From the IMG/VR virus record IMGVR_UViG_3300030102_003210: DNA of 64,000 nt; one strand, written 5' to 3'. Source of the stretch: an uncultured virus (IMG/VR IMGVR_UViG_3300030102_003210). Its lineage: Duplodnaviria; Heunggongvirae; Uroviricota; Caudoviricetes. The notes under the pieces were generated by a model, which saw only the letters and a program-made list of their open reading frames with translations, was not told the origin of the DNA and searched no databases. Positions 761 to 54,215 of this stretch are shown here, piece by piece. Positions within the stretch are counted from its first letter, which is position 1. Each line of letters starts with the position of its first letter. The translations under genes and the position numbers were made by a program.

Positions 761-2098
761 ATGGGTAAAAAAGGAGATGAACTCAGGGAAGCAGCAGAAC
801 TTGCTGACCAAGAGGAAGCACTCCGAGAACAGAGAAAAAGAATCACGGATGAACTGAAGAGTTCTTGGCTATCAGAGCAACCAATATCCAGCCACACCGA
901 CATTGAGAAGAAGTTCGCAGAGGAACACAGACTGACATTGAGCGATGCTAGAAAGCATCTCTCCACCGACCTAAAAAAATATGAGATAGAGGGTAGGGAC
1001 GTTCCTGCGCTAATCAAGGAGTTGAAGGACTATCGAAGAACCCTCAAGGGCGAAGAGAAGATAGCAGTAACCAAATCAATTTCAAATCTAATCAACTCTT
1101 ACTCAGACCACTTGGACAAGAGCATAGACAAGATATACTGGTTGAGAAAGTATAAGCCAGCATTGAAGGATATGTCCTACAATGAGGAGAACATCATCAA
1201 ACTCTCTATGATAAGGGAAGAGGATATTAGAAGACAATTAGTTGATTCACTATGCAAGTATTGGGAGGATAAACTTGAGAGGAACGGTATGCCGTTCAAC
1301 GCAGAGTACGCTAGGTTGACGAAGGGCATGACCAACAGCAAGAGGGAGTTCAAGGACATAGTGAACAAATATATGGTCAACATAGGGCCAAAGGAGATAC
1401 TCAAGAGGCACATAACTAGAATGGTATGTGAAGAACAGGGAATATCATCGAGGCAGATTTACGAGAGACTTCCTGACAGTATCTCTAGAAAGACATCACC
1501 CTCCATGATATCATGGTTGGCTAAGTCTGAGGACATAACGAATGTCAATGGTGCATTGTATAAGATGAGCCATGACATAAAGAAGGACATCTACGCATAC
1601 ACTGCTGCATTCATAGATTCTGATGGCTATATCACGATGGACAAGAACCACAATCCTAGAGTCGGATTGGTAGCAACGGGAGATAGGGGTAAGGCGTTCA
1701 TGTTGGAAATGAAGAAGTCCCTAGGTATTGGAAGACTACACCTAGACCAAAAATCACCACAGGATACAAAGCCAATCAACAGACTGAACTTCTACTCACA
1801 GGCTGAAGTAACAGAACTCCTAACGAAGTGCCTTCCACATTTCAAACTCAAGAGAAAGAATGCAGACATACTTCTAGAACTCATGAGAATGAAGAAGAGT
1901 CACAAGAAAGCCTCTTGGTACAACGCTAGGAAGACGGAACTATTCAAACTGATGAAGTACGAGAACCACAAGGATGACAAGAACTACGACTTTGGGAAGT
2001 ATAACATAGACATAGATAACGTTGCGAAATACTATGACAATAACAAGACTTCTGAGATGGACAAATTGGAATCTATTGTAAAGAATGAGGATGAGTAA
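761..2098 (+). CDS. LAGLIDADG endonuclease-domain protein with long helical N-terminal extension
   Basis: Single LAGLIDADG helix YAYTAAFIDSDGYI followed by typical strands and LPHFKLKR; about 270 aa of unrelated N-terminal sequence. Confidence 0.8.
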   Translation: MGKKGDELREAAELADQEEALREQRKRITDELKSSWLSEQPISSHTDIEKKFAEEHRLTLSDARKHLSTDLKKYEIEGRDVPALIKELKDYRRTLKGEEKIAVTKSISNLINSYSDHLDKSIDKIYWLRKYKPALKDMSYNEENIIKLSMIREEDIRRQLVDSLCKYWEDKLERNGMPFNAEYARLTKGMTNSKREFKDIVNKYMVNIGPKEILKRHITRMVCEEQGISSRQIYERLPDSISRKTSPSMISWLAKSEDITNVNGALYKMSHDIKKDIYAYTAAFIDSDGYITMDKNHNPRVGLVATGDRGKAFMLEMKKSLGIGRLHLDQKSPQDTKPINRLNFYSQAEVTELLTKCLPHFKLKRKNADILLELMRMKKSHKKASWYNARKTELFKLMKYENHKDDKNYDFGKYNIDIDNVAKYYDNNKTSEMDKLESIVKNEDE

Positions 2099-13765: not shown

Positions 13766-14233
13766 ATGGCTAATGTTAAATTAAAGAACCATAGAGTAAG
13801 TGGTCCTCTTCTACTAAGAAGAGCAGGTGCTACTTATGCTCTAACAGCACAAGAAGAAACAAAAGTCCCTTTGGGAATAGCAGTGGGAATGCTAGGAGAC
13901 ACAGGGCTACTCGTAGAGTTAAACTCTGACGATGAAGCAGACATACTATCTGCAAACGAACATACCTTAGAACTACTAAGAAGAGAGTTCGGTATAGAGG
14001 GAGATGCCAAAGCAATACAAGGAGCATTATTCCCAAAGAAATCCTTTGCAGCCAAGGCGATGAAAAGCATCACGCCAGTAGAGGAACCCGAAGCACCTGA
14101 AGAGGTCGCAGAGGAAACTATTGACTACTCAAAATATACAGTAAAGCAACTCAGGGAGATGCTTGAGGAAAGAGGACTATCAACTGACGGTAAAAAAGCA
14201 GAATTGGTAGAGAGGATGTCGGGGGCTGAATAA
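13766..14233 (+). CDS. Protein with C-terminal SAP DNA-binding domain
   Basis: YSKYTVKQLREMLEERGLSTDGKKAELVERM matches the SAP consensus. Confidence 0.75.
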   Translation: MANVKLKNHRVSGPLLLRRAGATYALTAQEETKVPLGIAVGMLGDTGLLVELNSDDEADILSANEHTLELLRREFGIEGDAKAIQGALFPKKSFAAKAMKSITPVEEPEAPEEVAEETIDYSKYTVKQLREMLEERGLSTDGKKAELVERMSGAE

Positions 14234-14541: not shown

Positions 14542-14967
14542 ATGCCAAGTATAGATACAGATACCCGTCTAGTGATGACTGTTCTTTTTGTTGGTGCTAT
14601 CAGTGGCATTAACGTATACTTCTTCTCACAGTATGGTTCAACCTTCGTTAATGCATATGGTCCCTATCCTGTCGCTGTCATATTCGGTGTTTTGACAGTA
14701 GGTGGGATAATGATTCTCAAGGCATTATTCGATTTGATACTAAATGACTACATTGAGGATTTCCTGCTTCAGCGACAGATAAACGCTTATTGGAACAGAA
14801 AGGCAAGAGACGAGGACAACAGAAAGAGGGTGAGGGAATCCATGAGAAACTTCCAGCAGCAGTTTGGAGTTCCTATGGTATATGGAGACAGTGTTATTCC
14901 TAATCTACCGCAACCCCAAGATGCTCAAACTGTTAGTCCTACCTTCTTAACAGGTTTCAATGAGTGA
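14542..14967 (+). CDS. Membrane protein (2 TM helices plus charged/coiled-coil tail)
   Basis: Hydrophobic stretches LVMTVLFVGAISGINVYFF and VAVIFGVLTVGGIMILKALF; GAGGTG SD. Confidence 0.75.
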   Translation: MPSIDTDTRLVMTVLFVGAISGINVYFFSQYGSTFVNAYGPYPVAVIFGVLTVGGIMILKALFDLILNDYIEDFLLQRQINAYWNRKARDEDNRKRVRESMRNFQQQFGVPMVYGDSVIPNLPQPQDAQTVSPTFLTGFNE

Positions 14968-15248: not shown

Positions 15249-15920
15249 ATGTCGGTGATGGCAGGTTTCGCTATACTCATGGTGGAGGCGATGAACAAGT
15301 TGTATAATCGTCTTCATGCAATCAATTTCGGTATTTATGGGGCGAGTCAAGCAGGAAAAACCACACTGCACAAGCAACTAACAACTCGGGGGGAAGTTCC
15401 TGAAATTAAAAAAAGAACAGTGGGCAGACACAGAGCAACTAGAAAGTTCGTAAAAATAGATGGTGATGCTCATACTGTTAAGACAGCAGACATTGGTGGA
15501 CAAACAGTATATTGGGGAGAATGGGTAAAGGACATGCGAACTAGGCATGTGAAATATATCATATTCATGTTCGATGACAGACATCTCAGCAAGCACTATG
15601 ATATTGAACAGCAACTATGCTGGACATTTCTAGTTGATACGATATGCAATCAATATTGGGAAACTGGTGGCAGAAAGAAGAAGAAACAAGACCATGATTT
15701 CCCATTGGCTGTTGGTCTTTGGGCAAACAAGTACGACCTATGGAAAGACAAGTATCCACACAACGGAAAAATAGAGGACCATCCTATATTTGAGTCATTC
15801 AAACCGGGCCTACAGAGATTGAATGATGCAGGTATCCCCTGTCACAAATACATTGTCAGTGCCAAGTCTGATTCAGAAATGGTATACCGTGGAGTCCTAA
15901 CAATGATAAAAGACTACTAG
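15249..15920 (+). CDS. Ras-superfamily small GTPase, Arf/Sar1-like
   Basis: G1 GASQAGKT, G2 RTVG, G3 DIGGQ, G4 NKYD, G5 SAK; N-terminal hydrophobic/amphipathic helix; GAGGTGA SD. Confidence 0.88.
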   Translation: MSVMAGFAILMVEAMNKLYNRLHAINFGIYGASQAGKTTLHKQLTTRGEVPEIKKRTVGRHRATRKFVKIDGDAHTVKTADIGGQTVYWGEWVKDMRTRHVKYIIFMFDDRHLSKHYDIEQQLCWTFLVDTICNQYWETGGRKKKKQDHDFPLAVGLWANKYDLWKDKYPHNGKIEDHPIFESFKPGLQRLNDAGIPCHKYIVSAKSDSEMVYRGVLTMIKDY

Positions 15921-15935
15921 TTAGTCAGAATAGAC

Positions 15936-15954
15936 AGGCTCATAGTGTGAGCCT
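15936..15954 (+). promoter_or_regulatory. Short intergenic hairpin after the GTPase gene
   Basis: AGGCTCA-TAGTG-TGAGCCT inverted repeat. Confidence 0.35.
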
Positions 15955-15976: not shown

Positions 15977-16669
15977 ATGGCAATGCAACAATTTCAGCCT
16001 CCAAGTTTGATTGGAGCAACGAATGCGACAGTGAATACAGGCGGTGTAAATCCGTTCCTAGACCGATTTACTGCGGCTAGGGCGGCTGGCCCTATAATGG
16101 CCTATGAGTATAAGGCCATGAAACCTAAGAAACAATTGAAAGAGATAGTGAAGGTATTGAAACCTGAAAAGAAAACATTTCTCAAAATACCCTACGCTTT
16201 CAAGTATAACTTCAAGGATAGGTGTGTGATATGTGGAACACAGAAGTTTTGGACAGCAGATGATACTAGGAGACCCCCTCTTCCACTGCACAAGGTTCGC
16301 AAGGGATATCCAATGAGAGGGACATACTGTGAGAAACACGCAGCGATACACATGCAGTATGAGATGTTAGAGCAACAGATACTAGCAGAGGAACATGGGC
16401 TTTCTTTCAGTGCGTACATTCCATCTGCTAAGAGTTTGAATCCAGTTAACCTAATGAAATCAGGACCACTTACTACTTTGAGACAGGAAGACATAAACTC
16501 CCTTTCCTCCCTAGGTTGGAACATAACACCTCCGAAAAATACCTCTGCAACACCGGAAGAGCAATTGTATTCCCTTATGATACAGCAGTCAGCAATGTCA
16601 GAGAGGGTTAAGTCCTTATTGAAGAATGGTGTCGAAGTACCTGTCGAAACTACGGAGAGTGAAGCATAA
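15977..16669 (+). CDS. Zn-finger protein (CxxC...CxxH, treble-clef-like)
   Basis: RCVICGTQKFW...GTYCEKHAAIH. Confidence 0.7.
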   Translation: MAMQQFQPPSLIGATNATVNTGGVNPFLDRFTAARAAGPIMAYEYKAMKPKKQLKEIVKVLKPEKKTFLKIPYAFKYNFKDRCVICGTQKFWTADDTRRPPLPLHKVRKGYPMRGTYCEKHAAIHMQYEMLEQQILAEEHGLSFSAYIPSAKSLNPVNLMKSGPLTTLRQEDINSLSSLGWNITPPKNTSATPEEQLYSLMIQQSAMSERVKSLLKNGVEVPVETTESEA

Positions 16670-25477: not shown

Positions 25478-26533
25478 ATGGCATCGACAGCACATGTAGG
25501 AGAGACAAGGGCATTGGTCTTTCCTGTTATGTGCAGTGGATACCTTCTGTTGGACTACAGTGAGTACAATAATAACAACTACAAGCACAACCTATGGGAC
25601 CATAAGAACGAACCATTCACATTTGAGGCTATAATATCACCATACGACGTAAATGGAATAGGACATAGGACAGCAGGACAAGGAAGGCTAGATAGCACCA
25701 AGACTCCACCTAGCCCTAATTTGACCCTTGATGACCATGCTAATACCACTTCTAACTACGAGAGTGTGTCTTATTTCGGAGCAGGAAGAAATACCCATAA
25801 GATGATGCTGTTTCAAAATACGAATTTTCAATTCTACTTGGAAAATACAACCTTATCGAACTTCAATCAACCAGCAGAGTACAAGTTAGTCTGCAAAATG
25901 ATGTCAAACGGTATCTCCCATACGACTGAGAGCGATGCTGTCATACTCGCTTCAAATCGCTTGAAGGGATACTATGACATTAATGCCTTCTATGACAATG
26001 GAAAACTGGTCACAACTAAGACTCAATTAAGCACAAGTGCTTCTGTTCCTGTCGGGATGGCTAACAATCCGATATCACTAGGTTCGGGTGAGGCTGATGG
26101 AATAGGTGCGGGTAGTGAAATATTTGACAACTCAGGTGTGTTGATAGGCACTGTTGGCCCGACTAGTTTTAGCGGTGATACAATATTCCTATCTGCACCA
26201 CCTGCTACACCTGTGACTTCTACATTATACACGAATCAGCCAAAGGAGGCACTGTATATTGAGAAGATAATGAAAGTATCCTGCTCTTTTGATAATAGGT
26301 CAGTCTCAATATATCTCAACAACACATTGGTGCAGAGAAAGAAGTTAGACATAGGTGACTTTGAGTTTGATGCAGTTGATTGCTACATAGGAAGAGGAGC
26401 AGGAAACAACTCACAATTTATGGGGGAGTTGTATGAGGTTTGTATGCACAAGAGCATGACCCCATGTGCAACGATATCTACACTCACTCCTAACTATGGT
26501 GATACGTTGTTCTACTATACTTTCGGTGAGTGA
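25478..26533 (+). CDS. Tail protein with LamG/concanavalin-like elements
   Basis: FTFEAII, SIYLNN and YIGRG...FMGELYEV motifs. Confidence 0.55.
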   Translation: MASTAHVGETRALVFPVMCSGYLLLDYSEYNNNNYKHNLWDHKNEPFTFEAIISPYDVNGIGHRTAGQGRLDSTKTPPSPNLTLDDHANTTSNYESVSYFGAGRNTHKMMLFQNTNFQFYLENTTLSNFNQPAEYKLVCKMMSNGISHTTESDAVILASNRLKGYYDINAFYDNGKLVTTKTQLSTSASVPVGMANNPISLGSGEADGIGAGSEIFDNSGVLIGTVGPTSFSGDTIFLSAPPATPVTSTLYTNQPKEALYIEKIMKVSCSFDNRSVSIYLNNTLVQRKKLDIGDFEFDAVDCYIGRGAGNNSQFMGELYEVCMHKSMTPCATISTLTPNYGDTLFYYTFGE

Positions 26534-26534
26534 C

Positions 26535-29500
26535 ATGAGTAAGGCAGATGGAACGTTCACCTACCCGATGTCCTCTCAGAAGGATGTCGCTGATGCTGGT
26601 TCAAACTACGATAACATACTATCTGAGTTTAGCACTGGAACAGCATTCAGGGATGTGACGGTCAACCCCATCCTAAAGACAACGCATGTGACATCAGAGA
26701 CAACGAACAACAACGTCGAAGCAGTATCGTCCGTTATATTCACAGAGATAAGAAAAGGACCACATGCAGATAGCATATCGAATGACTTAAACTCACAGAT
26801 AGGAAACAGGATACTTCCCGTCAACACAACGAAAGACAGTCATGGGACAGCAAAGGACACATCTGCTCCATTCAAGATAAAGGTGTATGACTCTGAAGAA
26901 AGTGCATCTACGAATAGGAAGTTCGTATACTCGACTATTGACTCCCCTGCGACGGACACGTTGGGAATAGACATCGATAACTATGACTATTTCATAATGC
27001 TGAACCCGTCCATAATACAGGACACTGGTTCAACTACTCAGACATCCGTTAGACCACACTTCGCAAAGATAACCGGAATAACCACCTTCAATGAGTTTGG
27101 AGACGGGTTGGAGTTCTCCCCCAAGTATCCGGTTCCAGTTCCAAAGGGAACGCAATTTGAGGTATTCAAAGGACCGCACAAGATAAATGACTCAGATGTT
27201 GTCGCTGTTAGTTATGGCCTAAGAGGTGATGCCAATGCCAACACCGACAACTACGATGTACTGAATGTTGTCAGCAAGCCGACCTTCTACTTCTACAATG
27301 ACAGGTTAGAGCAGGATGACCAGTTGGACTACATGGAGAAGTACACGCTAACTAGGATGCGATGGTTGACAACATTGAGCAGTACGGCTATCATAGTAAC
27401 GAACACCGATGCCCATGACAAGTACGAGGAAGGTAGTTCCTCCGCTAGATTCACCGTAGCACCATCTGACATCAGCAAGTTATGTGAGGGAATGTCGTTA
27501 TTCAATAGCAACAACGAATTCCTAGGGAACATAAAAGACAGAGACACGGCAAACAACTACATACAATTGGACTTCGCAAGAATCGCAATTGCTGCCAGTT
27601 CCTCCACGTTGACCTATAGGATAGGAAGGGGAATACAGAACGTGGTCTTCAGGACAGAGAGTAGGATAAAGGGAACCATACCGAACATAGGTAGGCAGAA
27701 GTTGGATGCGGTTCTAGTTGACAACCTCAGAAACACCGATGACTCAGATAGCAACTTTAACCCCTCATTTTGGAGAAAGTCATTCGTGAACATGAGAAGA
27801 CATGAGCAGGATAGTACGACTGTCACTGTGAATGATAGTCATTTCGATGGAGAGTTGAATGGCCCTGCAAGATACATCACATCAGACCCAAGACCATTTA
27901 GCAATGACAAGATAAGTCCCATGTCAGATATCGTGGTCAATAATCCTAGAAACAGGATGAGCAAGATTGCCAAGATGATAGCCTTGAACAACTCAGGTAT
28001 GCTACCACATAAGATAGAAAGGGGAAAGAAACTCAAGGTGCTGAATACCAAGTTCAGTGATAAGTGTGAGATGAAAAAACTACCAGTGTTGGTATCTAAG
28101 ACTAATGGAGCAAATACGATAACATTCACTGAGATAGATGCATCTCATGACTACAAGTTATCTGAAAAACTACCAACTGACTCCATTCTTGAGATAGGAG
28201 ACTACCATTATGTCGTTGATTCCTTTGCAAACAAGAGCAACAGTAGTCAAGTGCTTACAACGAAGGCTAGAAAGACCTTGACCGAAAATACCTTCACCTT
28301 AACAACCGATGTTCATGATTTCACAAATCTGGAAGTGAAAGTTGTATTTTGGACAGGAGTGTTGAATACCGACACTTTTGACTCTGAAACCGATGTGATA
28401 TATGCAGACAATCACCGATTGTCCGTATCAGATTCAACAGTGAAGAAGGAAAACACCAAGTTTTTCAATTCAAGAGTAAATTTCACATCCCTAACATCGC
28501 ATGAGAATCTCGTTGACTTTATCGATAGAAACATGAAATATGTCAAGATACAGGACGCAAGCAGAAAGTTCTACCAAAGTTCCAACATAGAGAGGTTCTA
28601 CTACTATGATGGCTCCTACAGTTTGCAGGAGGAAGTATTCTCCGGTGTAGTGGAGTCAACTGATAACACGACTGAGAACGGTCTATCCACTATGGTCATT
28701 GAGGGAAGGGACGACTCTGCACTGCTTCTCAACAAAATAGTCAACAGAAACTTGGTGCATACTGAGGACTTGCTCTTCAGCAGTCTCAACCCTGTTGTTC
28801 CACTGCCAACCACATACGTCTCGCTTCTCATGGTTCTCAACAGTGTCAATGACAGGGTGATAGAATATGCCAACAACAACAACCTAACTCCCAAGAAGTA
28901 CATGCTGTTGTTTAGAAGAAGCGCAACGGCGAATGAGAACGGCACGTTCATCGGTGAGGTGGAGTCGGTATCCGTTGGTGCTTTCACCACTGAACTGACG
29001 CTGACACACAAGCCCCTGATAGACATACCAAGTACAGTATCAGCACTTGATGTCTATGTCTATGACCCCTTTGAGGACTCCACATACCTATCGGGTGTGA
29101 AGGCCATAGGCAGCAACCCTGCCTTAACTTCCTCCACTGATTTTGAGGGAACTAGTGACAAGGGACTGGTATTCCAAGATGGCCTTCTAATTAGCAGGGC
29201 AAGTGATGGAACACTAAGCACATCAAACTTGCGTGGCACATCCAATAGTGGCTCGTATTTGGGAAACAGGACACTAGGTTATGGTATTTCTAAACCGATA
29301 AGTATAGACCTGTTGAACGATGGTGTATCAAGTCCTGATTCTACTTTTGCGATTAAACCATCGAATGAGACAGGTGTTTCATTCATCAACTCAGTTATAC
29401 CATCATATGCATCAGAGACATTCGATGTGGTTCAACTGACATCGAAGGATGATGGTGGTGCTACAATGACAATCGCACCTAGATGTCCACTCATAATGGG

Positions 29501-32500
29501 TAGGTTGGAGAATAACACCAGTGATTCTAGGTCTAACTATTCCTTCTACTTCGTTAACAACAACATCAGTTCAGGAGGCTTCCTACACAGGATAGACACC
29601 TTGGATGGTGATACTGGACAGAGGGACTTCCTGACTGATGATGTGCTTTGGACACCTAGGGAGACTTACAGGTATTGGGACATGCAAAGATTCGATATCG
29701 GGTCATTGACGAAGAACAAGGCTAGGGCATATAACAAGGCGAAGTCTGCTATAACTGGATATGCCATATCTTATCCAATAATGGGTAATGGTCACACACC
29801 TGCGACCTCAACGAGAACAGCGAGCAGTGCGCCTGTTCTTGGAAGCAACATGATTGACTCCGACTTCACACTGAGCAATACCTCTAACATATTCTTGGAG
29901 AACCCACCAAAGGATTTCGTTAGGACTAGTCCATCTACTACTGACGCTAGGTTTCCTGATGTTGACTTTCTTTTGAACTATCATCCAAAGGCTCAGAACT
30001 ATGAGATATTCTCAACGGGAGACCTGTATCCATACTCAAAGTTGAGGTATAACAACATCGGGTACTCTACACTGAGTTTCAATAACCTGTCATGCCTACT
30101 AGAGTCAAGCAGTAGAGCATCCTCGACTAGCAATGGTCACTCATCGTATACAGGGAAAACGTTCTCCAACGATAGAAAGGACTCTGACTACGAGAAAGTA
30201 ACAATTAAGTCAGCAGATAAAACCACTAACCAAATCAAGAGGTTCGGAGTAGCGAGGTTAGTTGAGGCGACATTCGATTGGCACTTCAACCCGATAGACC
30301 CGGATGACCTACCAACAGAGACCCCAGTGCAAGCATCCTACTATCAAATGTTTAAGAAAAGGGAGAGCATAACGAACCTACAGGTATCAAAGACTAGTAG
30401 CGGAAACCCAACGATAACATTCGATGGTGGAGGAACCATAACCGTCGATGACGGTCAGGTGTTCTTCGATGCCAATACTGGTAGGGCGTTGTTGTCATAT
30501 TCTAGTGTTCTTTCTACAACTATAAGTTCAGGTGGGACGATTAGTGCCTCAGACTTAAACAATATATCAGGGGAGACATCGATATCCTCCACAGACGCAT
30601 ATACAATAAAGCAGTACGATGATACGAAATTCAGGATAGAGTCATTCAGCGACGGATTTGAGGTATACAACGCAGAAGACAATAACGTCACTGATGTAAT
30701 AGACTTCTCAAGCGTCTACCTAGTCAGACCGAACCTGCACACATCAGGGTTCAGATACTCGTTGCTAGAGGCAACCAATGGTGCTGACTACGACCCTCCA
30801 AACGTCTTCCTACCTCTAATCTTCAAGAGCAAGACGAGTGCATCAGCCACTGCTATGAATGTCGCAGACCAGTCGCCATATCATCCTGATGGAACTTGGC
30901 ATACTCTGAATAGTACCCCATACTATCATAGTTCTAGGGTTCTAGCAGCACTTCAAATGGATAGGGGAACAAGTAGTCTACTTATTGATGCCGATAAATA
31001 TAGCATAGAGAATGACGTTCATCCCTATGAGAACTGCATAGCCGTATTCAGAAACATAAGAAAGGTCTCGTCCGAGGGGCCAAACGTTCCCTCTGACATG
31101 TTTCAAACAAGTGCCACGCTTGGAAGCCGAGAGGAAGTGTCTGCGCATGATACATTCTTCGCTGGTGGGGTAGATGGCAACTTCGACCAACACACACCTA
31201 ACACGATGGTTTTCAGGCACACTGATGGCAATGCATATGCGATATCGGGAACTCACACTAGGAGCAGGTACAACGCTCATACTGGCTCGGGTAATTGGAT
31301 TGAGTCTGACAATGGTGCTGAATACTTCCTATCTGAATTGAATGAAAATGAATTGACTACGAGTAGGACGACGAACTCACATATAGAGACATCATCCAGT
31401 AGTAGCGGTGGTGGGGTATACCAAGCGCAGATGATGATTAAGCCAGTCTTTGACTTCGACGCAGATGACATCACGATAAGTGGTAGGACGATAACATTCG
31501 CCTCGGATGAGAATGACTTCAAACACTCATGGTTGTTGTTTGTGCCTGACTTGACCGGATATTACATAGTTGCTGAGAGGATGTTTGAGACCAAAGCAAC
31601 AACGAGTCTAGGAAATTTAGACGTATTCCCCCATACTGATACTCATGAGTTGATATCCAAAAGTCCCGAGGGAGGAAACATACTCACGATTGCCAAGATA
31701 ATCCGACATGAGATAAGTGGTATGACAAGTGCAAATGATGGTACTCATGATATTATCATAGAGTTGGATAAACAACTTCCATCAACTACTTCACACACGG
31801 ATGGTGGTCCTAGATATAGACTAATGAAACTAGCAGAGACCACATTCAGGGACACACCCAATGAAATAATATTCAACAGACTACATGCAACTGGATTGGA
31901 CTACTCGCTAACAACATCAAACTTCGCAAGCGGGACGACGAACCCTAGAACACCATCTTCCGGTCTGAAGGGTGAACTATCAGAGGGGGTGTATAGCGCA
32001 TATGTTTTGATGAATACAGATGTAGCACCTAATACCCATACTGACACTGATTCACAGACAATAATCACTGACAACCACTTGGTATCCTCATCCAACCTTC
32101 CTTATTCAGATGGCGATACGTTTGATGCTTTCATAACAGATGGAACCAACTCATCAAGAAAGACAATGACTGTATCGCTATCATCTGCGTCTAGGTCTGA
32201 AGGTAGGAGAAAGGCAGAGCATAAACTGACATTCGACGGAACACTGACAGGAAACGGTGTGGTATCATTCGGTGAGGTTATCAATTTGGAACTGGATACT
32301 AGACCTGACTTGGGAGATGTCTCTGTCTGTCACATAGGAACCAGCATGACAATCGGCTCTGAGGCAGAGACTGAGATTGAGAGGATAGCGAAGGAGGCAG
32401 GTATGACAACAGATACCATACAGACACAATCAATATTCACAGGAAACATAGTCAGCAGTGTTAGCAATAACATAGTGACATGCAAGAATGCTGTTGTTGA

Positions 32501-33515
32501 CATAGAGGCAGGTGATGTGATATACACGCATGAGGGCTTACCAGTAGGCGAGGTAGCAAGTGTTTCAGGTAGCGATATAACCTTCAATGACGTTCACACT
32601 GACATTGATATCGACCTTTGGTATACTCCATTGGTAAATGACGAACTGATAAAGAGAGAGAAGAAGACATTCATCGCCACGAATAACTTCACAGAGGTAT
32701 CGGCATTCGATGCTATAAACACCCTAGCAAGTAAGAAGGAAATGGACTTCAACGTGAAGGGCAAACACATAGACTTCAGGAAGTTAAACGTATTGAGCGG
32801 TTTAGTGAAGAAGAAGATAAACTACAAGAACAACAGGATATTCAGGATAGATACAAGTTCAGAACTCTTCGCAAAGGCAAACAAGGTCACTGTCGTTGGG
32901 GATAGGGTAAGTGCAATAGCACAAGTGGATGAGGAAGGAACTGAACTCACGTTTGTTGATTCCACCATCAAGACTAGACAAGATGCAAGGGTAAAGGCAA
33001 ACGAACTCCTAGAACTACACAATGAAGACACTAGGAAGATTACACTAAGGTTAGAGAGGAAGGGACTAGAGACTCTAGATGCAGGAGATGTAGTTGAATT
33101 AGACTTCCCTGCACAAGGCATTGAAAATAACAAGTATGTAATATTTGAAATAGAGAATGTTCTTACAAGTCAAATAACCATGACCGTTGGAACTTTCAGT
33201 AAGACTATCGCAGAAAGACTATCAGAATTAGGAAGTGGTCAAAGGGAAAACACGGCAACGACATTCACTAAGAACAGTATATCAGTAACAGGTGATACTC
33301 TACTGAAGGATTCCCTGAAGATTAGGGTTATGAACGTCAACTATGTTATCTCAGGAACAGGTGCGGTATCGAATGTTGGGTTCGGTGCTAAGGTCGGATT
33401 CTTTGATGATGGTGGGTCTGAGAATGCCGATGCTGAATTAGATAGCAGTGGAACAGAGGTTGGTTTCAGTAGGCAGTCGGTTGGGGTTTTGTTGAACTAC
33501 GATAGTGAGGATTGA
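26535..33515 (+). CDS. Very large tail-tip/hub (central fibre-like) protein
   Basis: About 2330 aa, S/T/N/D-rich; hub-like VFSGVVE..MVIEGRD and LDAGDVVEL..YVIFEIE motifs; ORF open from 26466. Confidence 0.65.
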   Translation: MSKADGTFTYPMSSQKDVADAGSNYDNILSEFSTGTAFRDVTVNPILKTTHVTSETTNNNVEAVSSVIFTEIRKGPHADSISNDLNSQIGNRILPVNTTKDSHGTAKDTSAPFKIKVYDSEESASTNRKFVYSTIDSPATDTLGIDIDNYDYFIMLNPSIIQDTGSTTQTSVRPHFAKITGITTFNEFGDGLEFSPKYPVPVPKGTQFEVFKGPHKINDSDVVAVSYGLRGDANANTDNYDVLNVVSKPTFYFYNDRLEQDDQLDYMEKYTLTRMRWLTTLSSTAIIVTNTDAHDKYEEGSSSARFTVAPSDISKLCEGMSLFNSNNEFLGNIKDRDTANNYIQLDFARIAIAASSSTLTYRIGRGIQNVVFRTESRIKGTIPNIGRQKLDAVLVDNLRNTDDSDSNFNPSFWRKSFVNMRRHEQDSTTVTVNDSHFDGELNGPARYITSDPRPFSNDKISPMSDIVVNNPRNRMSKIAKMIALNNSGMLPHKIERGKKLKVLNTKFSDKCEMKKLPVLVSKTNGANTITFTEIDASHDYKLSEKLPTDSILEIGDYHYVVDSFANKSNSSQVLTTKARKTLTENTFTLTTDVHDFTNLEVKVVFWTGVLNTDTFDSETDVIYADNHRLSVSDSTVKKENTKFFNSRVNFTSLTSHENLVDFIDRNMKYVKIQDASRKFYQSSNIERFYYYDGSYSLQEEVFSGVVESTDNTTENGLSTMVIEGRDDSALLLNKIVNRNLVHTEDLLFSSLNPVVPLPTTYVSLLMVLNSVNDRVIEYANNNNLTPKKYMLLFRRSATANENGTFIGEVESVSVGAFTTELTLTHKPLIDIPSTVSALDVYVYDPFEDSTYLSGVKAIGSNPALTSSTDFEGTSDKGLVFQDGLLISRASDGTLSTSNLRGTSNSGSYLGNRTLGYGISKPISIDLLNDGVSSPDSTFAIKPSNETGVSFINSVIPSYASETFDVVQLTSKDDGGATMTIAPRCPLIMGRLENNTSDSRSNYSFYFVNNNISSGGFLHRIDTLDGDTGQRDFLTDDVLWTPRETYRYWDMQRFDIGSLTKNKARAYNKAKSAITGYAISYPIMGNGHTPATSTRTASSAPVLGSNMIDSDFTLSNTSNIFLENPPKDFVRTSPSTTDARFPDVDFLLNYHPKAQNYEIFSTGDLYPYSKLRYNNIGYSTLSFNNLSCLLESSSRASSTSNGHSSYTGKTFSNDRKDSDYEKVTIKSADKTTNQIKRFGVARLVEATFDWHFNPIDPDDLPTETPVQASYYQMFKKRESITNLQVSKTSSGNPTITFDGGGTITVDDGQVFFDANTGRALLSYSSVLSTTISSGGTISASDLNNISGETSISSTDAYTIKQYDDTKFRIESFSDGFEVYNAEDNNVTDVIDFSSVYLVRPNLHTSGFRYSLLEATNGADYDPPNVFLPLIFKSKTSASATAMNVADQSPYHPDGTWHTLNSTPYYHSSRVLAALQMDRGTSSLLIDADKYSIENDVHPYENCIAVFRNIRKVSSEGPNVPSDMFQTSATLGSREEVSAHDTFFAGGVDGNFDQHTPNTMVFRHTDGNAYAISGTHTRSRYNAHTGSGNWIESDNGAEYFLSELNENELTTSRTTNSHIETSSSSSGGGVYQAQMMIKPVFDFDADDITISGRTITFASDENDFKHSWLLFVPDLTGYYIVAERMFETKATTSLGNLDVFPHTDTHELISKSPEGGNILTIAKIIRHEISGMTSANDGTHDIIIELDKQLPSTTSHTDGGPRYRLMKLAETTFRDTPNEIIFNRLHATGLDYSLTTSNFASGTTNPRTPSSGLKGELSEGVYSAYVLMNTDVAPNTHTDTDSQTIITDNHLVSSSNLPYSDGDTFDAFITDGTNSSRKTMTVSLSSASRSEGRRKAEHKLTFDGTLTGNGVVSFGEVINLELDTRPDLGDVSVCHIGTSMTIGSEAETEIERIAKEAGMTTDTIQTQSIFTGNIVSSVSNNIVTCKNAVVDIEAGDVIYTHEGLPVGEVASVSGSDITFNDVHTDIDIDLWYTPLVNDELIKREKKTFIATNNFTEVSAFDAINTLASKKEMDFNVKGKHIDFRKLNVLSGLVKKKINYKNNRIFRIDTSSELFAKANKVTVVGDRVSAIAQVDEEGTELTFVDSTIKTRQDARVKANELLELHNEDTRKITLRLERKGLETLDAGDVVELDFPAQGIENNKYVIFEIENVLTSQITMTVGTFSKTIAERLSELGSGQRENTATTFTKNSISVTGDTLLKDSLKIRVMNVNYVISGTGAVSNVGFGAKVGFFDDGGSENADAELDSSGTEVGFSRQSVGVLLNYDSED

Positions 33516-33517
33516 AG

Positions 33518-33895
33518 ATGACGATAGTAAATACAGGAGCAAACGCAATAGCAGACCATATAGCGGCAGAATATCGAGTAGTTGCCATAGGCAATGGAGG
33601 GGATACAACTTCCCTGCAATCTACTGGCTTGAACAGTTTCGTCAGAATGAAGGTAGGACAAATACCGGATGTTGTTGGTACTTCCTTGATATACAACGTT
33701 TCCTTTACTGGTGCTGAGATTCCATCTTCAGGAGTATCTGAACTAGGCATATTCAAGACAGGAACAGGTGAAAGTGATGGAACGACCCCACCTAACGGTA
33801 TTTTATTGAGCCGAGTCACCTTCACAAACACCGGAGTAGTTGGCTCAAGTGACACAGTTTCATTTCAAGTAAGGATAGAGGTGGGTAATGAATGA
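33518..33895 (+). CDS. Small tail-tip/fibre attachment protein
   Basis: IVNTGANAIA..AIGNG..SELGIF..LLSRVTF pattern common in tail-fibre-base proteins. Confidence 0.55.
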   Translation: MTIVNTGANAIADHIAAEYRVVAIGNGGDTTSLQSTGLNSFVRMKVGQIPDVVGTSLIYNVSFTGAEIPSSGVSELGIFKTGTGESDGTTPPNGILLSRVTFTNTGVVGSSDTVSFQVRIEVGNE

Positions 33896-36800
33896 CATCG
33901 AATACAGGAATAATAAGTGGAATGGATACTAGTGTCGGACAACTGAAGGACGGTGTTGACAACATACACAGTGGTATCATCAAGGCACTTCAGACTGCTA
34001 CTGGTGAGAACAGGGGAGTAGATGGGTTTGATTTAACACAAACGACAAGCGGTATTCCGTCCACAACTAGGTTCGTCGTCACCGGAGGCAAGGTTCTCAG
34101 AAATGGTAAACTCACCACTGTCTCAGCAGCCAACCTAGATACTACGACTTCCACTATAGCCAGTGGCTCTTCTGATTGGTATGGTGTTATTGTAGTCTGT
34201 GATGGCACTGAAAGCAATGAGACTGCTAATACTCTCAAGTGGAGATTTGGTGCGGTCACTGGATACACTCTTAGAAACGCATCATCAACAGTAGCAGAAC
34301 TGAAAGGTGGAGATATACCAATCATCGTTGTTCAAATCGCTGCTGGCTCATCCAGTGCTTCTACAACTAGAAAGCACCAGTTCCTAGCATACGAGCAAGC
34401 AGACAGGGAGTTCTCTGCATTTGACTCAGGAACAGAGAGACTGAGAATAAACAAGGGAGGAACATTGACCCACACACCTAGTTCCACATCATATACATTG
34501 ACACTCCCATCTGCCACAGGAACCGTCGCACTAACATCAGACATATCCAATCTAGCAGCAGGTAGTCTAGCAGCAGGTGCGGTGACTGAGGCTAAACTAG
34601 CAACGAATTCAGTATCAAACACTAAGATTGCAGAGGATGCTGTCACTTTCGATAAGATGCAAGACCTATCTGCTGCATACAAGTTAATTGGGACAGGAAG
34701 TGCTTCAGGGCAAGTGTCTGAGGTATCTATTGCGACACAGCATATAGACAACAATGCAGTTACCACTAATAAGATAGATGACAGTGCAGTGACTTCAGCG
34801 AAGATTGCTGATGGGACAATAGTATCGAATGACTTGGCAGGTGGAGCAGTAACGCTGGATAAGATTGCTGACATTGCCCAAGATAGAATACTCGCAAGAG
34901 TGGCAAGTGGTACAGGAGATGTTCAGGCAATTACTGCTGCTCAGTTAAGAACCCTAATCAATGTAGAGGACAATGCTGATGTCACTAACACTGCTAGAGT
35001 CAAGTCTGCTTTAGGAGGAGACTTAGGTAATTTCACTCTAGGAGAGAGTAACGATTCTACTACTGTTGCTGGTAATCTCACAGTAGCAGGAGATTTGACT
35101 ATCAGTGGAACCACAACCACTGTCAACTCAAATACCGTGAATATCGGAGATAGCATAATCACTCTAAACTCTGATGCAACAGGTAGCGCAAGCGAAGATG
35201 CAGGTATAGAAGTCGAAAGGGGAAATGATGCAAATAAGACACTAATTTGGGATGAGAGTGCAGGAAGGTGGACAGTTGGCTCTGAGACATTTGTTGCAGG
35301 GACTTTCATTGGTAATCTAACTGGAACTGTGACACATGCTAGTGCTTTGGCTACCCCTAGTAACTTCTCGATATCAGGAGATGTCACTACCACTAGTTCG
35401 GTATCCTTCAATGGAAATAATGATGTTACATTGGCTACTAGTCTTGCAGCAGGAGTTGTAGATACTGCGGAACTTGCTGATTCAGCCGTTACCAATGCTA
35501 AGATAGCGAGTCAAGCCGTTACCAATACTAAGATAGCGAGTCTAAGTGTCACCAATAATAAACTAGCGAATGACGCTGTGACCTCCGATAAGATTGATGA
35601 CGATGCAGTTCTAACTGCTCATATTGCAAATGACCAGATAACTTCTGATTTAATCCAAAATGATGCCATAATATCAGACTTAATTGCAGATGGTGCTGTT
35701 TTGAATGACCATCTAGCAGGAAGTATTGCTCAATCCAAGATAACAAATCTAGTCTCAGACCTAGCAGGAAAACAGGCAGCATTGACATTTGGTGCTGGTC
35801 TATCTAACTCAGGTGCTACGATAAACGTAGACATTAGTGAGTTGAGCGTTGAGAATGGAATAGACAAGGATAATGACCATCTGATGTTCAATGACAATGG
35901 AACTCTGAAAAAAACAACCTTGACCAATATATTCACCAAGATAGGTGAATCAGACCTACCAAGCCTTTCCGCTTCCAAAATAGGAACTGGTACATTTGCT
36001 GTCGCTAGAATACCCAACATAGCAACTAGCAAGATAACAAGCGGAACATTTTCCACTTCTAGAATTGCAGATAATGCAGTTACATTCGATAAGATTCAAG
36101 ATGTTTCATCAGGTATACTTCTAGGTAGAACCACATCAGGAACAGGGGGAGTGGAAACACTTTCTGCTTCAGCAGTAAGGACATTCTTGAACGTAGATGT
36201 TTCAGGAACGGATAACTCAACTGACGTTACACTTGCTGGAAGTAGAGACTACTTGACCTTGAATGGACAACAGATAACGGTTGGTGAGATTGACATATCG
36301 GATGATACCAACCTAGTTGCTGGAACCAACCTCACATTATCAGGAGACACATTGAATGTAGATACCGACTTATCCAACTACAGCAATGCTAACTCAGGAT
36401 TCCTAACTGCACACCCAACTATATCAAGTGCAGCAACTACTACTAACAATAGTGGTAGAACATACATACAGAACGTCACACTAGATTCAAATGGTCATGT
36501 CACAGGATTCAGCACTGCGACTGAAACAGTCACAGACACTCAATACAGTGTTGGTGACGGGGGTTTAACACAGAACAACTTTACTGATAGCCTAAAGAGC
36601 AAGTTAGATGGTATTGCTGATAACGCTAACAATTTCATCCTGCAAACAGCAAGTGCATCCACATTAGGTGGAGTAAAGATAGGTAGTAACCTATCGATAG
36701 ACGCAGGAACAGGAATTCTATCTGCTGATACACAGTCGGATGTTAATTTCACATCTGCCTTGAATACAAAGTTATCAGGGATAGAGACAGGTGCAACAGC

Positions 36801-39800
36801 AGGTGCTAACTTCGCAACAAACGTCAGCAACATCTCAGTTACTAACGCTCAACTTGCTGGAAGTATTGCAAATAACAAACTCGCAAACTCGTCAGTTACC
36901 GTCAATGGCAGCACTGTCGCTTTAGGTGGGAGCATTACACTAACAACTGCCAACGTAGCAGAGGGTGCTAATCTATACTTCACTGAAGAGAGAGTTGACG
37001 ATAGGGTGTCTGCACTACTATCTGCTGGTGAAGGGTTGGACATCTCATACGATGACCCCAATGGAACTCTAACAATATCATCCGAGGATGCAACCACGAC
37101 TAACAAGGGTGTAGCCTCCTTCGCCTCTGCTACCTTCGATGTGACAGGTGGTGCAGTCAATGTTAAGTCGGGAGGTATAAGCAACGCACAACTCAATGGT
37201 TCTATCTCTAATGACAAACTCCTAAACATCGCACAAGGCAAGATAACTGGTCTCACATCTGCATTAAACTCCAAGGTAGAGAACCTCAGTGATTTGGGAA
37301 TAACCGCATCTGCCGCAGAGATAAACATACTAGACGGGGTAACTGGTGTATCTTCGACGGAGATAGGCTACCTAGATGGAGTCACATCTGCTATTCAGAC
37401 TCAGTTGGATGGCAAGCAAGCATCAGGAAACTACCTGACTACCTCATCTACGATAACATCACTATCAGGCATAGCCGAGTTTGACACTGATATCACAGCA
37501 GTTAGCAATACACATGACTCCGTTCCATCAGCAAAGGCTGTCAAAGAATACGTTGACATGGTATCATTCGATGCTAACGACACACAATACGCCTTCAGTG
37601 TGGAAGACACTAATGTCAACAATACGAAGAGATTGAAACTAACTGGAACTGATGGTAGTTTCACATCTGTGAACTTTGAGGGAAGTGGTGGAGTATCAGT
37701 CACTAGAATCAACGAGAGGATAATCATAGATAGCACAGCACAACCTGTTCAGTCGGTTGCATTTAGTGGGAACACGCTAACATTAACGAAGATAAACAAT
37801 AGTACGGTCACAGCCACTATACCTGATGCTACTACTAACGTTCATGGGTTGATGACTGATGACCAGTTCAACAAACTAGCAGGTATAGAGAGTGGTGCTA
37901 CTGCCGACCAAACAGCAGCAGAAATCAAAACCCTAGTTGGTTTAGCATCCGATTCCAACGTATTCACTGATGCTGACCACAGTAAATTAGATGCCATTGA
38001 AGCAGGTGCTACAGCAGACCAAACCGCATCTGAAATACGAGCATTAGTAGAATCTGCCTCAGACTCTAACGTATTCACCAATGCAGACCATACCAAACTA
38101 AATGGTATAGAGGCAAATGCAACTACTGACCAAACCGGAGCAGAGATAAAGACAGCACTGTTTAACGAATCCGATACGAATAATCTAACAGATACGCTAC
38201 TAAGCAAGTTGAATAATATTGAGTCTAACGCTACGGCAGACCAAACTGCATCTGAAGTAACTGCTTTGTTGAATGACGTTGCCAGTTACACCCTTGGAAC
38301 ATCAGGCTCAGGAACGATAACCATCGCCAATGATTTAGTCGTAACGGGAACCACGACAACGAACAACGTTGAGACTGTGAGTACAAGCAACGGTGTGGTG
38401 TTTGAAGGGAATGCAGCAGATGGCAACGAAGTTACTTTACTAGCAGGTACAGTAACAGCAGACAGAACGATAACGCTACCTGACGCTACTGGAACGGTAT
38501 TACTCACTGATGGTTCAGGTGCATCACTGACATCCTTGAATGGCTCACAGATAACAACTGGAACAGTCTCTGCGGCTAGAATAGGAAATCTACCTGCATC
38601 TAAGATAACGACAGGAACCTTCCCAACCGCTAGAATTGCAGACAGTGCAATAACAACGGCGAAGATTGCAGATGATGCTGTGACCGTTGCCAAGATAGAT
38701 GGTCTGACTGACTTGGGAAGTGGAGTTGTAATCTCATCAGCAGAGAGAACGAAACTAACAGGAATAGAGGCTTCAGCAGATGTCACGGACACTGCTAACG
38801 TCACTGCCGCAGGTGCTTTGATGGACAGCGAAGTCACTAACCTCGCACAAGTAAAGGCGTTTGACTCATCTGATTACGCCACTGCCGCACAAGGGGCAAA
38901 GGCTGATTCAGCACAACAACCCCCAAGTGAGGGAGCATTCGTTGATGGTGACAAGACCAAACTAGATGGAATCGAGACAGGAGCAAATGTAACAGATACA
39001 GCGAATGTCACAGCAGCAGGAGCATTAATGGATTCAGAGGTGACGAACCTAGCACAGGTAAAAACATTCGATTCCTCTGACTATGCAACTGCCGCACAGG
39101 GAACTACTGCTGATGCAGCGTTGCCTAAATCCGGTGGGACGATGACAGGCAACATAACCTTCAATTCAACACAGCAGTTTGATGGTAGAGACCTATCTGT
39201 TGATGGAGCGAAGTTAGATGCTATTGAAGCATCAGCAGATGTCACTGATGCAACTAATGTAGCAGCAGCCGGAGCGATAATGGATGGTGACTTCACTAGT
39301 AATGGATTCATGAAGAGAACAGGTGCAGGAACATACACCATCGATGCAAACACATACCTGACCGCACATCCGACAATTAGCGGTGCTGCAACCGATACAA
39401 GTAATACGGGTAGGACATACATACAGAACCTAGAGTTTGACTCAAATGGTCATGTCACAAGTGTATCAACAGCAACTGAAACTGTTGTGAATACAGACAC
39501 ACAACTCACTGAGGCACAGGTTCGTGACTTTGCAGGTGGGATGTTCACAAACAACACAGAGACATTCATCACTGCAACCTATCAGACCTCTAGCGACACG
39601 ATAGATTTGGTAGTGCCTGTTCTAGATGAGAACGATATGAACTCAAACTCCGATACACATCTCGCTACCCAACAATCCATCAAGGCGTATGTGGATACCG
39701 AAATATCGGATTTAGTCAATAACGCACCTTTAACACTAGACACTCTGAAAGAAATAGCAGATGTGCTAGGAGATGATAGTAACATAACAGGTACAATAAT

Positions 39801-52355: not shown

Positions 52356-53242
52356 CAGAACCAACTCTCGGTGTTAGCCGCATCACATATACCAAAGAAA
52401 CTACAATTTGAACATGTCTTTGCGAAATACTTCGTTGGGAAGATACCAGTCTCGTATGAGTGAATGAGTTGTGCAATACCCTTCTTCACTGCTGTTATGC
52501 TACCCTTCTTCACTTCCTCCACATAGATGTAGTTGGCCGCAGGATAGTACCATCCCCAATGAGAGATTGGTATCTCAGGGTCTAGCCCCCACTCTATCAG
52601 TTTCTCATCAGGTGTGTTCTCAAAGAGAATCTTGTAGAAGGCCATCTCCTTCCTCATCATCGTAGTCTTCCAATCTTTCCAACCACCAGTCTTCAACTCC
52701 ATAGGAATGTACCTATCTCCTTCCTTGAACATCCGGTCAATGATTCCCTGAAGATGGACAACATAGTCTTGCTTCAATAGATACTTAGGGTTCTCATCCT
52801 TGTTTATCACAATCTTAGCATCCAACATTATCTCGTTTATGACTGGAATGAAATCCTCTGTTGTTCCCTCGTCCCTAGATTCTATGAACCTATTAGCCTC
52901 GAAAATGGACATAGCCTCATACATCTCGTCATAGTCATCTATGGGATGGAGTTCCATGCAATAGTTGACTAGTTCCTCATAAGACATGTTCTCTGCCTTC
53001 TTTACGTCAAAGGTGTTGAAGAAGTCCTCTCTAGCATTATGTATGATGCTCCCCTTAATCATGACCTCAGTTGTCTCTATCGGCATTCTCTCTTTGTACT
53101 GGAACTCATATCTCTTAGGACACCACTGATAAGAACCAAGTGAAGACTTGGATATCTTCAGTATCGGATAATCCTCGTCACCATAATATTCAGGTTCCCA
53201 TTGATATGTGTATTCATTTGTGTTGCTCTGTCTCAAAACCAT
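52355..53242 (-). CDS. Cas4-like PD-(D/E)xK exonuclease with Fe-S cluster
   Basis: SKSS..CPKR, GSIIH, GIIDR, ELKTG and CSNCSFFGIC motifs. Confidence 0.85.
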   Translation of the reverse strand: MVLRQSNTNEYTYQWEPEYYGDEDYPILKISKSSLGSYQWCPKRYEFQYKERMPIETTEVMIKGSIIHNAREDFFNTFDVKKAENMSYEELVNYCMELHPIDDYDEMYEAMSIFEANRFIESRDEGTTEDFIPVINEIMLDAKIVINKDENPKYLLKQDYVVHLQGIIDRMFKEGDRYIPMELKTGGWKDWKTTMMRKEMAFYKILFENTPDEKLIEWGLDPEIPISHWGWYYPAANYIYVEEVKKGSITAVKKGIAQLIHSYETGIFPTKYFAKTCSNCSFFGICDAANTESWF

Positions 53243-54114: not shown

Positions 54115-54215
54115 ACGCATCCCCCAACTAAACTAAACGTGTTATTTACGAAAGCAATCGTTCCTGTGATGTAAAATGATACTCTAGAGTAGAATATCTT
54201 GTCTTTTCTGTTCAT
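54111..54215 (-). CDS. 34-aa hydrophobic micro-ORF between the polB halves
   Basis: Read manually: MNRKDKIFYSRVSFYITGTIAFVNNTFSLVGGCV; ATGA overlaps at both ends. Confidence 0.45.
   Translation of the reverse strand: MNRKDKIFYSRVSFYITGTIAFVNNTFSLVGGCV

Follow-up and report, generated by a model that had tools for sequence, protein, structure and literature searches.

A conserved small GTPase gene in a group-B-type magrovirus: a divergent member of the Ras superfamily that may serve as an Arf-like membrane switch

Introduction

Does a tailed virus of archaeal type encode a GTPase of the Arf family, and what might such a virus do with it? The question is raised by a 64,000-nucleotide (nt) stretch of DNA from the uncultured virus IMGVR_UViG_3300030102_003210, referred to below as the window, in which an open reading frame (ORF) at positions 15,249 to 15,920 encodes a small GTPase. 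A preliminary description made from the letters alone had attributed specifically Arf/Sar1-like signatures to this protein and, on the premise that Arf-related GTPases are usually discussed for eukaryotes and Asgard archaea, had suggested that it bears on the origin of the family. The premise is dated, because ArvA, an Arf-like GTPase of Euryarchaeota and DPANN that has an N-terminal amphipathic helix and is reported to drive vesicle formation, was published in 2024 (Mills et al., 2024, PMC10927574). According to the same source, ArvA is annotated as PF01926 and is encoded in an operon with OapB (DUF2073) and the Zn-ribbon protein OapC (DUF2072). The Asgard references for the ArfR group are GerdArfR1 (8OUN) and HodArfR1 (8OUK), and the interswitch toggle is described as a two-residue register shift of strands beta2-beta3 between the GDP and GTP states (bioRxiv 10.1101/2024.02.28.582541).

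We describe here a virus-specific GTPase family that is under very strong purifying selection and is encoded within a conserved cassette of small genes. Our preferred interpretation, to which we would give about an even chance of being right, is that the protein is a very divergent Ras-superfamily member whose build is nearest to that of Arf, Sar1 and SRbeta, and that it works as a GTP-controlled membrane switch late in infection.

The GTPase gene and its relatives

The GTPase ORF and its motifs are listed in Table 1. The start codon is preceded just upstream by GGTGAGGTGA, a Shine-Dalgarno-like run, and every motif string given in the preliminary description was found in the translation (YIIFMFD, for example, as residues 103 to 109), and the ORF is real. 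Residues were counted in 175 unique sequences of a close (core) clade and in 72 unique sequences of a divergent clade, designated P0135. Motifs G1, G3, G4 and G5 were all kept in 174 of the 175 close relatives, as befits the intact viral small GTPase that had been proposed. A Trp located 11 residues past the G3 Asp (W92) was present in all 242 sequences compared (174/174 core and 68/68 divergent), and in an alignment with the reference proteins described below it coincided with a Trp of 12 ArfR proteins, of an Arf1-type protein and of long Arf-like proteins; at this position, RasL and MglA-like proteins have Arg and Rag proteins have Leu. Similarly, Ala preceded the NKxD motif in 246 of 247 family sequences, which is an Arf-like pattern (ANKQD or ANKSD in ArfR, GNKxD in RasL). 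The G5 string SAK had also been listed as an Arf pattern, and this did not hold up: in the reference set, SAK is the RasL form, whereas CAT is found in the eukaryote-type Arf1 and CSA or CSI in most ArfR proteins.

A word-indexed protein search (E<=1e-3) yielded 358 GTPase homologues, and the 120 matches listed, which were 62 to 96% identical to the query, lay on marine metagenome contigs as long as 104 kb. An exhaustive phmmer search of 1.84 billion representatives yielded 62 matches, mostly fragments of the same cluster, together with full-length relatives (240 to 277 amino acids [aa], 29 to 39% identity) and the two singletons P0160 and P0167, and no canonical cellular GTPase was found in this search at E<=1e-3. 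In IMG/VR, it was found that the close clade is represented by 177 loci and the P0135 clade by 127 loci. A third clade consists of the P0160 relatives P0206 to P0208, one member of which sits on a viral contig (L377) beside prohead protease and capsid genes. When P0167 was used as a lone query, it matched only itself, and it had no relative among the viral contigs; a tblastn search of named phage records with the GTPase gave no match.

The Nei-Gojobori ratio of nonsynonymous to synonymous substitution (dN/dS) of the GTPase gene was about 0.024 (26 pairs, 80 to 97% identity), compared to 0.095 for the capsid protein gene, values that are rough because dS is near saturation. The GTPase family is virus-specific and under very strong purifying selection, and its conservation goes well beyond what chance would give. 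An Atlas feature search had pointed to a bacterial Arf-like relative; this candidate was rejected, as the viral hidden Markov model (HMM) had no match among the genomes searched (0 of 5 and 0 of 301) in the phylum to which an Anaerolineae metagenome-assembled genome (MAG) belongs.

Predicted structure

An AlphaFold2 model was calculated from a 34-sequence alignment that included two relatives that pass the Pfam Arf threshold (P0160 and P0167). The model has a mean predicted local distance difference test score (pLDDT) of 89.5, a predicted template modeling score (pTM) of 0.86 and a Ras-type alpha/beta core. The N-terminal helix of about 22 aa that had been proposed to precede G1 is predicted at this place, ahead of beta-1 (Table 1), with a mean Eisenberg hydrophobicity of +0.24 and a hydrophobic moment (muH) of 0.35 in the window protein. 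The helix is conserved in the family, with mean hydrophobicities of +0.12 to +0.48 and few charges. The model also contains inserts, namely a K-rich loop with a beta-hairpin at about residues 134 to 152 (hairpin 136 to 145) and residues 164 to 180.

In a Foldseek comparison, Arl2, Rabs and Ras ranked about level. A Foldseek-independent scan of 48,161 representative chains gave Z scores of 18.2 for Arf6, 17.4 for SRbeta, 17.4 for Sar1 and 17.3 for a Lokiarchaeal Rag-like protein, followed by a mimivirus Rab (16.8), Rabs (near 15) and the Roc domains of LRRK (13.4 to 13.9). The solved structures closest to the model were those of Arf6, Arl1, Arf1, Sar1 and SRbeta, so that its nearest neighbors in structure belong to the Arf family, which is one of several Arf-like traits that are real. 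This single static model fits GTP-state Arf structures best. No MglA chain was present among the 50 matches listed in either structural ranking. The structural ranking is the strongest evidence for Arf likeness, although, for a predicted model, the margin of 1 to 2 Z units is only a small one.

Sequence classification and phylogeny

The likeness to the Arf family extends to the N-terminal helix before beta-1, a GKTT P-loop, the Trp at G3 Asp+11 and the ANKxD form of G4. It was also evident in searches with the family profile, the best sequence match of which in the Protein Data Bank (PDB) was the Asgard protein GerdArfR1 (8OUN; 39.1 bits versus 34.4 for Rab33B). The only other Arf-family chain among the 60 PDB matches listed was Arl8A (29.7 bits). 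After removal of P0160 and P0167 from the profile, the corresponding values were 35.5 versus 28.8 bits, and 8OUN was the sole Arf-family chain among the matches listed. A search of the PDB with the GTPase as a single sequence gave only KRas (E 1.3). When relatives were scanned singly, P0167 (57.2 bits) and P0160 (27.2 bits) clearly reached the Pfam Arf model and P0083 (22.4 bits) was borderline; P0160, P0206, P0208 and the singleton P0167 pass this model and cluster with the viral family at a support of 100/98.

Profiles were compared by using hhalign. With the domains cut, the viral profile scored 72 against Lokiarchaeal long Arf-like proteins, 67 against ArfR, 61 against a small Asgard group, 58 against RasL, 48 against Rag, 48 against MglA-like proteins and 29 against NOG1. 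At full length, the scores were 89.7 for ArvA, 88.3 for ArfR, 74.7 for Lokiarchaeal long Arf-like proteins, 70.8 for RasL, 52.7 for Rag and 48.6 for MglA-like proteins. In these sequence comparisons, the lead of Arf over other subfamilies is a small margin at best.

Reference proteins for phylogeny were obtained by scanning prokaryote genomes for a P-loop DNA pattern and, in addition, from two Asgard genomes, and they were labeled by Pfam. Four kinase-like pattern matches were dropped, and only part of the RasL and ArfR ORFs was used. The resulting set contained 12 ArfR proteins, one eukaryote-type Arf1 (from a bacterial MAG), 9 long Arf-like, 5 Rag/Gtr, 11 RasL, 3 MglA-like and 6 other Asgard GTPases and 2 NOG1 proteins as the outgroup; it is without eukaryotic Sar1, SRbeta, Arl and G-alpha, Roc-COR, and bacterial MglA and Rup. 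As a side observation, eukaryote-type Arf1 was encountered in bacterial assemblies at three loci, L185 (a Rickettsiales MAG; Pfam Arf 262 bits), L200 and L203, and may represent contamination or transfer.

Dataset 1 comprised 66 rows and 175 columns, with 17 viral-type rows. Dataset 2 comprised 71 rows, from which the long-branch sequences L319_715, L324_910 and L340_440 had been removed and to which 8 ArvA sequences had been added. In a quick tree of dataset 1, the viral clade (support 99) was the sister of Arf plus Rag (SH-aLRT 90), with RasL apart. In the dataset 2 tree, the viral clade (100/98) was again the sister of Arf plus Rag (88/72), with RasL and ArvA outside, and ArvA was outside a 97/93 clade of all else. 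The viral family was nested inside ArfR in none of the trees.

Several observations weigh against an assignment to the Arf family. Switch I reads KRTVGR (RT.G in the viral family) and not PT(I/V)GF or PT.GF as in Arf. The residue that follows DxGG was Q in 73 and E in 101 of 174 close-clade sequences, and Q in 47, E in 14, D in 6 and H in 1 of the divergent-clade sequences. The catalytic Gln had been described as retained, which is correct for Q85 of the window protein but not for the 101 of 174 close relatives that have Glu, and because the residue varies among Q, E, D and H, a Ras-type catalytic Gln is not a feature of the family. The viral N-terminal helix is hydrophobic and uncharged, unlike the cationic-amphipathic helices of ArfR (mean hydrophobicity -0.26 to -0.50 in four Asgard proteins), and the two inserts are a further difference from Arf. 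The window protein scored 15.8 bits (E 0.01) on Pfam Arf (PF00025), which is below the cut-off of 22.3, and it scored higher on Roc (23.1), MMR_HSR1 (21.6) and SRPRB (17.7), all below their cut-offs. Over 34 family members at E<=0.1, matches were obtained to MMR_HSR1 for 27, Roc for 22, SRPRB for 22, Ras for 19 and Arf for 15. In contrast, Asgard GTPases of every subfamily fetched scored 28 to 173 bits on the Arf model. The hhalign scores among canonical groups were mostly 114 to 166 (60 to 90 for Rag with RasL or MglA-like proteins), and the viral scores were lower; the viral family is therefore generally farther from each subfamily than the subfamilies are from one another. In a more careful tree of dataset 1, the viral clade (100/93) was attached to a long-branched Rag protein, and the enclosing node had a support of only 46/37. 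Finally, no constrained placement was rejected in approximately unbiased (AU) tests, in which the cost in log-likelihood (delta lnL) was 7.8 (p 0.275) in dataset 1 and 5.1 (p 0.223) in dataset 2 for the viral family with RasL, 2.2 (p 0.422) with MglA-like proteins and 7.0 (p 0.131) with ArvA, compared to 1.3 (p 0.463) with all Arf proteins.

The only NCBIfam match of the window protein was to the generic small_GTP model (28.1 bits versus a cut-off of 42.5), and a Roc match above threshold followed by a COR domain, as in Roc-COR proteins, was not found. The profile comparisons with Arf, Roc and MglA gave a divided answer, with 8OUN as the top PDB match on the one hand and a sub-threshold Arf score, exceeded by those of Roc and MMR_HSR1, on the other. 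In the trees, the family did not branch firmly with MglA or Roc, which had been named beforehand as the refuting outcome, nor did it branch firmly with Arf. The term "specifically Arf/Sar1" is too strong for a protein with a sub-threshold Pfam Arf score, low hhalign scores that lie close together, a moderately supported sister position and alternatives that are not rejected. By descent, as judged from the sequences, the viral GTPase would best be called an unplaced, Arf-leaning lineage and not a member of the Arf family.

The gene cassette

The GTPase gene is part of a cassette of five genes in the window (Table 1), the neighborhoods of which were compared in 80 core-clade and 80 P0135-clade loci. 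In 77 of the 80 core-clade loci (76 with room), the 141-aa membrane protein was encoded at a constant offset, and neither this protein nor the 76-aa membrane protein matched a Pfam or PHROG family. In the Cys/His protein, C83, C118 and H121 were invariant in 24 of 24 sequences and C86 was variable. The model of this protein had a pLDDT of 62, and its best Foldseek match in the PDB had an E value of 3.4; with this score and no PDB fold match, the protein could be assigned neither as ArfGAP-like nor as a Zn-ribbon protein. The C-terminal half (112 residues) of the 231-aa Q-rich protein contains 15 G, 13 Q, 13 P, 12 N and 9 M.

The same order was found in the P0135 clade, in which the two transmembrane (TM) proteins were present in 78 and 79 of 80 loci, respectively, and both the Cys/His and the Q-rich protein in all 80. 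In cross-clade hhalign comparisons (core versus P0135), the probability was 100% for the GTPase, 93% (E 2.6e-7) for the Cys/His protein and 88.5% for the Q-rich protein, the last value being perhaps inflated by low complexity. The P0135-clade cassette has different flanks, with a 1673-aa ORF upstream that replaces the head genes. This ORF (for example, L085, 62-5083, + strand) was present in 31 of 51 loci with room, contains several Cys clusters and has no assigned family. In the third clade (L377), the GTPase is accompanied by a TM protein of 74 aa and a Q-rich protein of 251 aa, and the Cys/His protein is missing. Upstream membrane protein(s) and a downstream Q-rich protein are therefore common to three clades and the Cys/His protein to two.

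The cassette genes of the window overlap by 4 nt (141-aa and 76-aa genes) and 1 nt (Cys/His and Q-rich genes) or are separated by gaps of 54 to 56 nt, an arrangement that would fit co-transcription. Promoter and terminator scans were at chance (10 versus 8.1 expected and 4 versus 2.5, respectively), archaeal promoters being outside the models of the scan. Three short contigs of one metatranscriptome library covered positions 15291-15487 (24 mismatches), 15594-15646 and 16201-16546 (identical), the rest being without cover; they are a weak hint of expression, with DNA carry-over a possible source. A 7-bp inverted repeat (AGGCTCA..TGAGCCT, with a 5-nt loop) is located at 15934-15952 (+), between the GTPase stop codon and the AGGAG of the next gene; it is without a T-run and was not called in the terminator scan.

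Proposed role and alternative explanations

The cassette lies in the late, structural-gene orientation. On our preferred interpretation of a membrane switch, release of the N-terminal helix would depend on the nucleotide, the helix of the GTP-bound protein would engage the host membrane, and the protein would cycle on and off the membrane as do Arf, Sar1 and ArvA. At the membrane, its partners might be the small membrane protein(s), Cys/His protein and Q-rich protein encoded alongside it, and the Cys/His protein could be a regulator, by a weak analogy to OapC and to ArfGAP zinc fingers. Late in infection, the cassette would then remodel or breach the host membrane, with egress or vesicle-like budding as the outcome. 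The precedent is ArvA, which is described as an Arf-like protein with an amphipathic helix that drives euryarchaeal vesicle formation (PMC10927574). A point against it is that the membrane proteins of the core and P0135 clades gave cross-clade hhalign probabilities of 1.6 to 4%, which is no detectable homology.

A different role, in virion morphogenesis, is unlikely in our judgment but is a real contender. The GTPase would then be an old, unplaced lineage of the Ras superfamily, its Arf traits being convergent or ancestral, and it might control head or tail assembly or the timing of DNA packaging. The position of the gene is in keeping with this role, as it lies between head and tail genes in the window and in the 80 core-clade loci and adjoins the prohead protease and capsid genes in L377; in addition, sequence methods do not single out Arf, and the AU tests leave RasL and MglA-like proteins as partners. 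However, the constant upstream neighbors in three clades are membrane proteins, the cassette is still kept in the P0135 clade where the flanking genes are not head genes, the hydrophobic N-terminal helix is conserved, and the structural ranking favors Arf, Sar1 and SRbeta.

A relationship to ArvA has also to be weighed, in which the viral protein would be a derivative of this euryarchaeal GTPase, captured from a host and used to hijack vesicle formation. With the viral HMM, 47 of the 61 genomes searched in one archaeal phylum each yielded a single ORF of about 207 aa (E 6e-8 to 2.8e-4; loci L345, L346 and L354-L376, genomes G004-G059). These ORFs scored 55 to 59 bits on MMR_HSR1, which is the Pfam family of ArvA and the one on which the window protein scored 21.6 bits, and they were identified as ArvA because, in the locus checked, the next ORF downstream encodes OapB (PF09846, 85 bits); this ORF was also the control for the scan of the viral cassettes described below. 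(An ArvA-type GTPase was also seen in a Woesearchaeota MAG, and the 207-aa form is highly conserved.) Both the viral protein and ArvA are small stand-alone GTPases with an N-terminal amphipathic or hydrophobic helix and mixed MMR_HSR1 and Arf signals in Pfam, both are encoded in a conserved small operon in which a gene for a Cys/His- or Zn-type protein follows (for ArvA, as described in PMC10927574), and ArvA gave the highest full-length hhalign score, although its margin over ArfR was only about 1 unit. Nevertheless, we regard descent from ArvA as quite improbable. ArvA fell outside the well-supported clade of all other sequences, and forcing it together with the viral family had a cost of 7.0 lnL units, at which the grouping is not rejected (p 0.131). 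It differs from the viral protein in a helical insert after G3 and therefore lacks the Arf-type Trp spacing. Furthermore, no Pfam match to OapB or OapC, or to any other family in the case of the cassette proteins, was found among nine viral cassette and flanking proteins of two clades at E values of up to 5, the viral cassette having membrane and Q-rich proteins instead.

MglA uses an arginine beside the switch-I threonine. The viral R56-T57 pair is conserved in 242 of 247 sequences, and Arg-Thr (as GRT) is present in 3 of 3 Asgard MglA-like proteins, which share the GKTT P-loop as well. It is conceivable, then, that the viral protein belongs to the MglA type, has an arginine finger of its own and acts on host polarity or the cytoskeleton, and the small cost of the viral plus MglA-like grouping would allow it. 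We consider this very improbable, as the hhalign scores with MglA-like proteins (48 to 49) are among the lowest, these proteins have Arg and not Trp at D+11 in switch II, the three references have no N-terminal helix, and the groups were unpaired in all trees.

A bolder claim, which we think improbable, would be that the GTPases of magroviruses and related marine archaeal tailed viruses form a deep sister lineage of the Arf/Rag supergroup, outside of Asgard archaea and eukaryotes, and run a GTP-switched membrane machine for virus exit, composed of the small membrane proteins, a Cys/His regulator and the Q-rich protein. If true, no earlier case of an egress system controlled by a GTPase would exist for a prokaryotic virus, and the finding would be evidence that Arf-type membrane switches circulated in archaeal viruses independently of eukaryogenesis. 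For the origin of Arf, on which the preliminary description had seen a bearing, the family says little at present because it cannot be placed in the trees. More modestly, this viral GTPase, under strong constraint, with its membrane-type helix and its fixed place beside small membrane proteins, offers a concrete candidate that can be tested; through it, Arf-like membrane switches would be extended to euryarchaeal viruses, which would bear on the spread of these switches before eukaryotes. No paper was found that links magrovirus and GTPase, and none, by title or abstract, on an Arf-type small GTPase gene of an archaeal virus. The word "GTPase" is absent from the main texts of PMC5434244, PMC11706807 and PMC10160649 and from two supplements of PMC5434244.

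The virus and other features of the window

The window virus is a tailed virus, with structural genes on the + strand and an archaeal-type replication block on the - strand. The structural set consists of the C-terminus of the large terminase, portal, prohead protease, HK97-type capsid protein, tail tube, tape measure and giant fiber-like ORFs. The replication block encodes a family-B polymerase that is split over two ORFs, a clamp loader resembling RFC, an ATP-dependent ligase of archaeal type, and nucleases of the ERCC4 and PD-(D/E)XK families. A split polymerase and two ligases are features of group B magroviruses according to Philosof et al. (PMC5434244), and by these hallmark genes the window virus is a group-B-type magrovirus, and the tailed virus that had been proposed is of archaeal type. 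Poseidoniales are given as the magrovirus host in the literature (PMC5434244). The nearest named relatives of the capsid protein are those of haloarchaeal tailed viruses, at 25 to 26% identity.

Table 1. Positions of the GTPase gene, its motifs, the cassette genes and hallmark genes in the window; residue counts are from the core and divergent (P0135) clades. KD19, Kyte-Doolittle hydropathy over a window of 19 residues.
Feature	Position	Strand	Remarks
ATP-dependent DNA ligase 1, 860 aa	8078..10660	+	inside structural module
Small membrane protein, 141 aa, two hydrophobic segments, charged C-terminal tail	14542..14967	+	KD19 2.02 (residues 10-28) and 2.33 (residues 44-62)
Small membrane protein, 76 aa, one hydrophobic segment	14964..15194	+	KD19 1.99 (residues 45-63); 79/80 core loci
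Stand-alone small GTPase, 223 aa	15249..15920	+	ATG-started ORF
Predicted N-terminal hydrophobic helix, residues 2-22	15252..15314	+	DSSP on model; pLDDT 66-79
G1 / P-loop GASQAGKT, residues 31-38	15339..15362	+	GxxxxGK[ST] in 174/175 core, 72/72 divergent
R56-T57 (RTVG 56-59), G2 Thr with preceding Arg	15414..15419	+	switch I RT in 174/175 core, 68/72 divergent
G3 DIGGQ (81-85) and switch II to W92	15489..15524	+	DxGG present; Q or E next
G4 NKYD, residues 160-163, Ala before (LWANKYD 157-163)	15726..15737	+	ANKxD in 174/175 core, 72/72 divergent
G5 SAK, residues 204-206	15858..15866	+	SAK in 173 core; MAT[RKN] in 71/72 divergent
Cys/His protein, 230 aa, motif MRGTYCxxH	15977..16669	+	80/80 core loci, 80/80 divergent loci
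Protein rich in Q/N/G/P/M, 231 aa	16669..17364	+	72/72 core loci with room; 80/80 divergent loci
Split family-B DNA polymerase	53233-56082	-	two ORFs, 554 aa and 295 aa, about 300 nt apart
ATP-dependent DNA ligase 2, typical three-domain archaeal form	61680-63212	-	in replication block

Other ORFs of the window were also noted. Three giant ORFs (2349, 2273 and 1740 aa) follow one another at 26466-45935 (+); the middle one contains tail-fiber PHROG repeats, the last two contain sub-threshold Pfam DUF5907 repeats, and the first is without a family match. A 445-aa ORF with an HNH endonuclease PHROG match is located at 761-2098 (+), between the large terminase and portal genes. A 155-aa protein of the head module, encoded at 13766-14233 (+), has a SAP DNA-binding domain at its C-terminus (45.9 bits); the head module is an unusual location for this domain.

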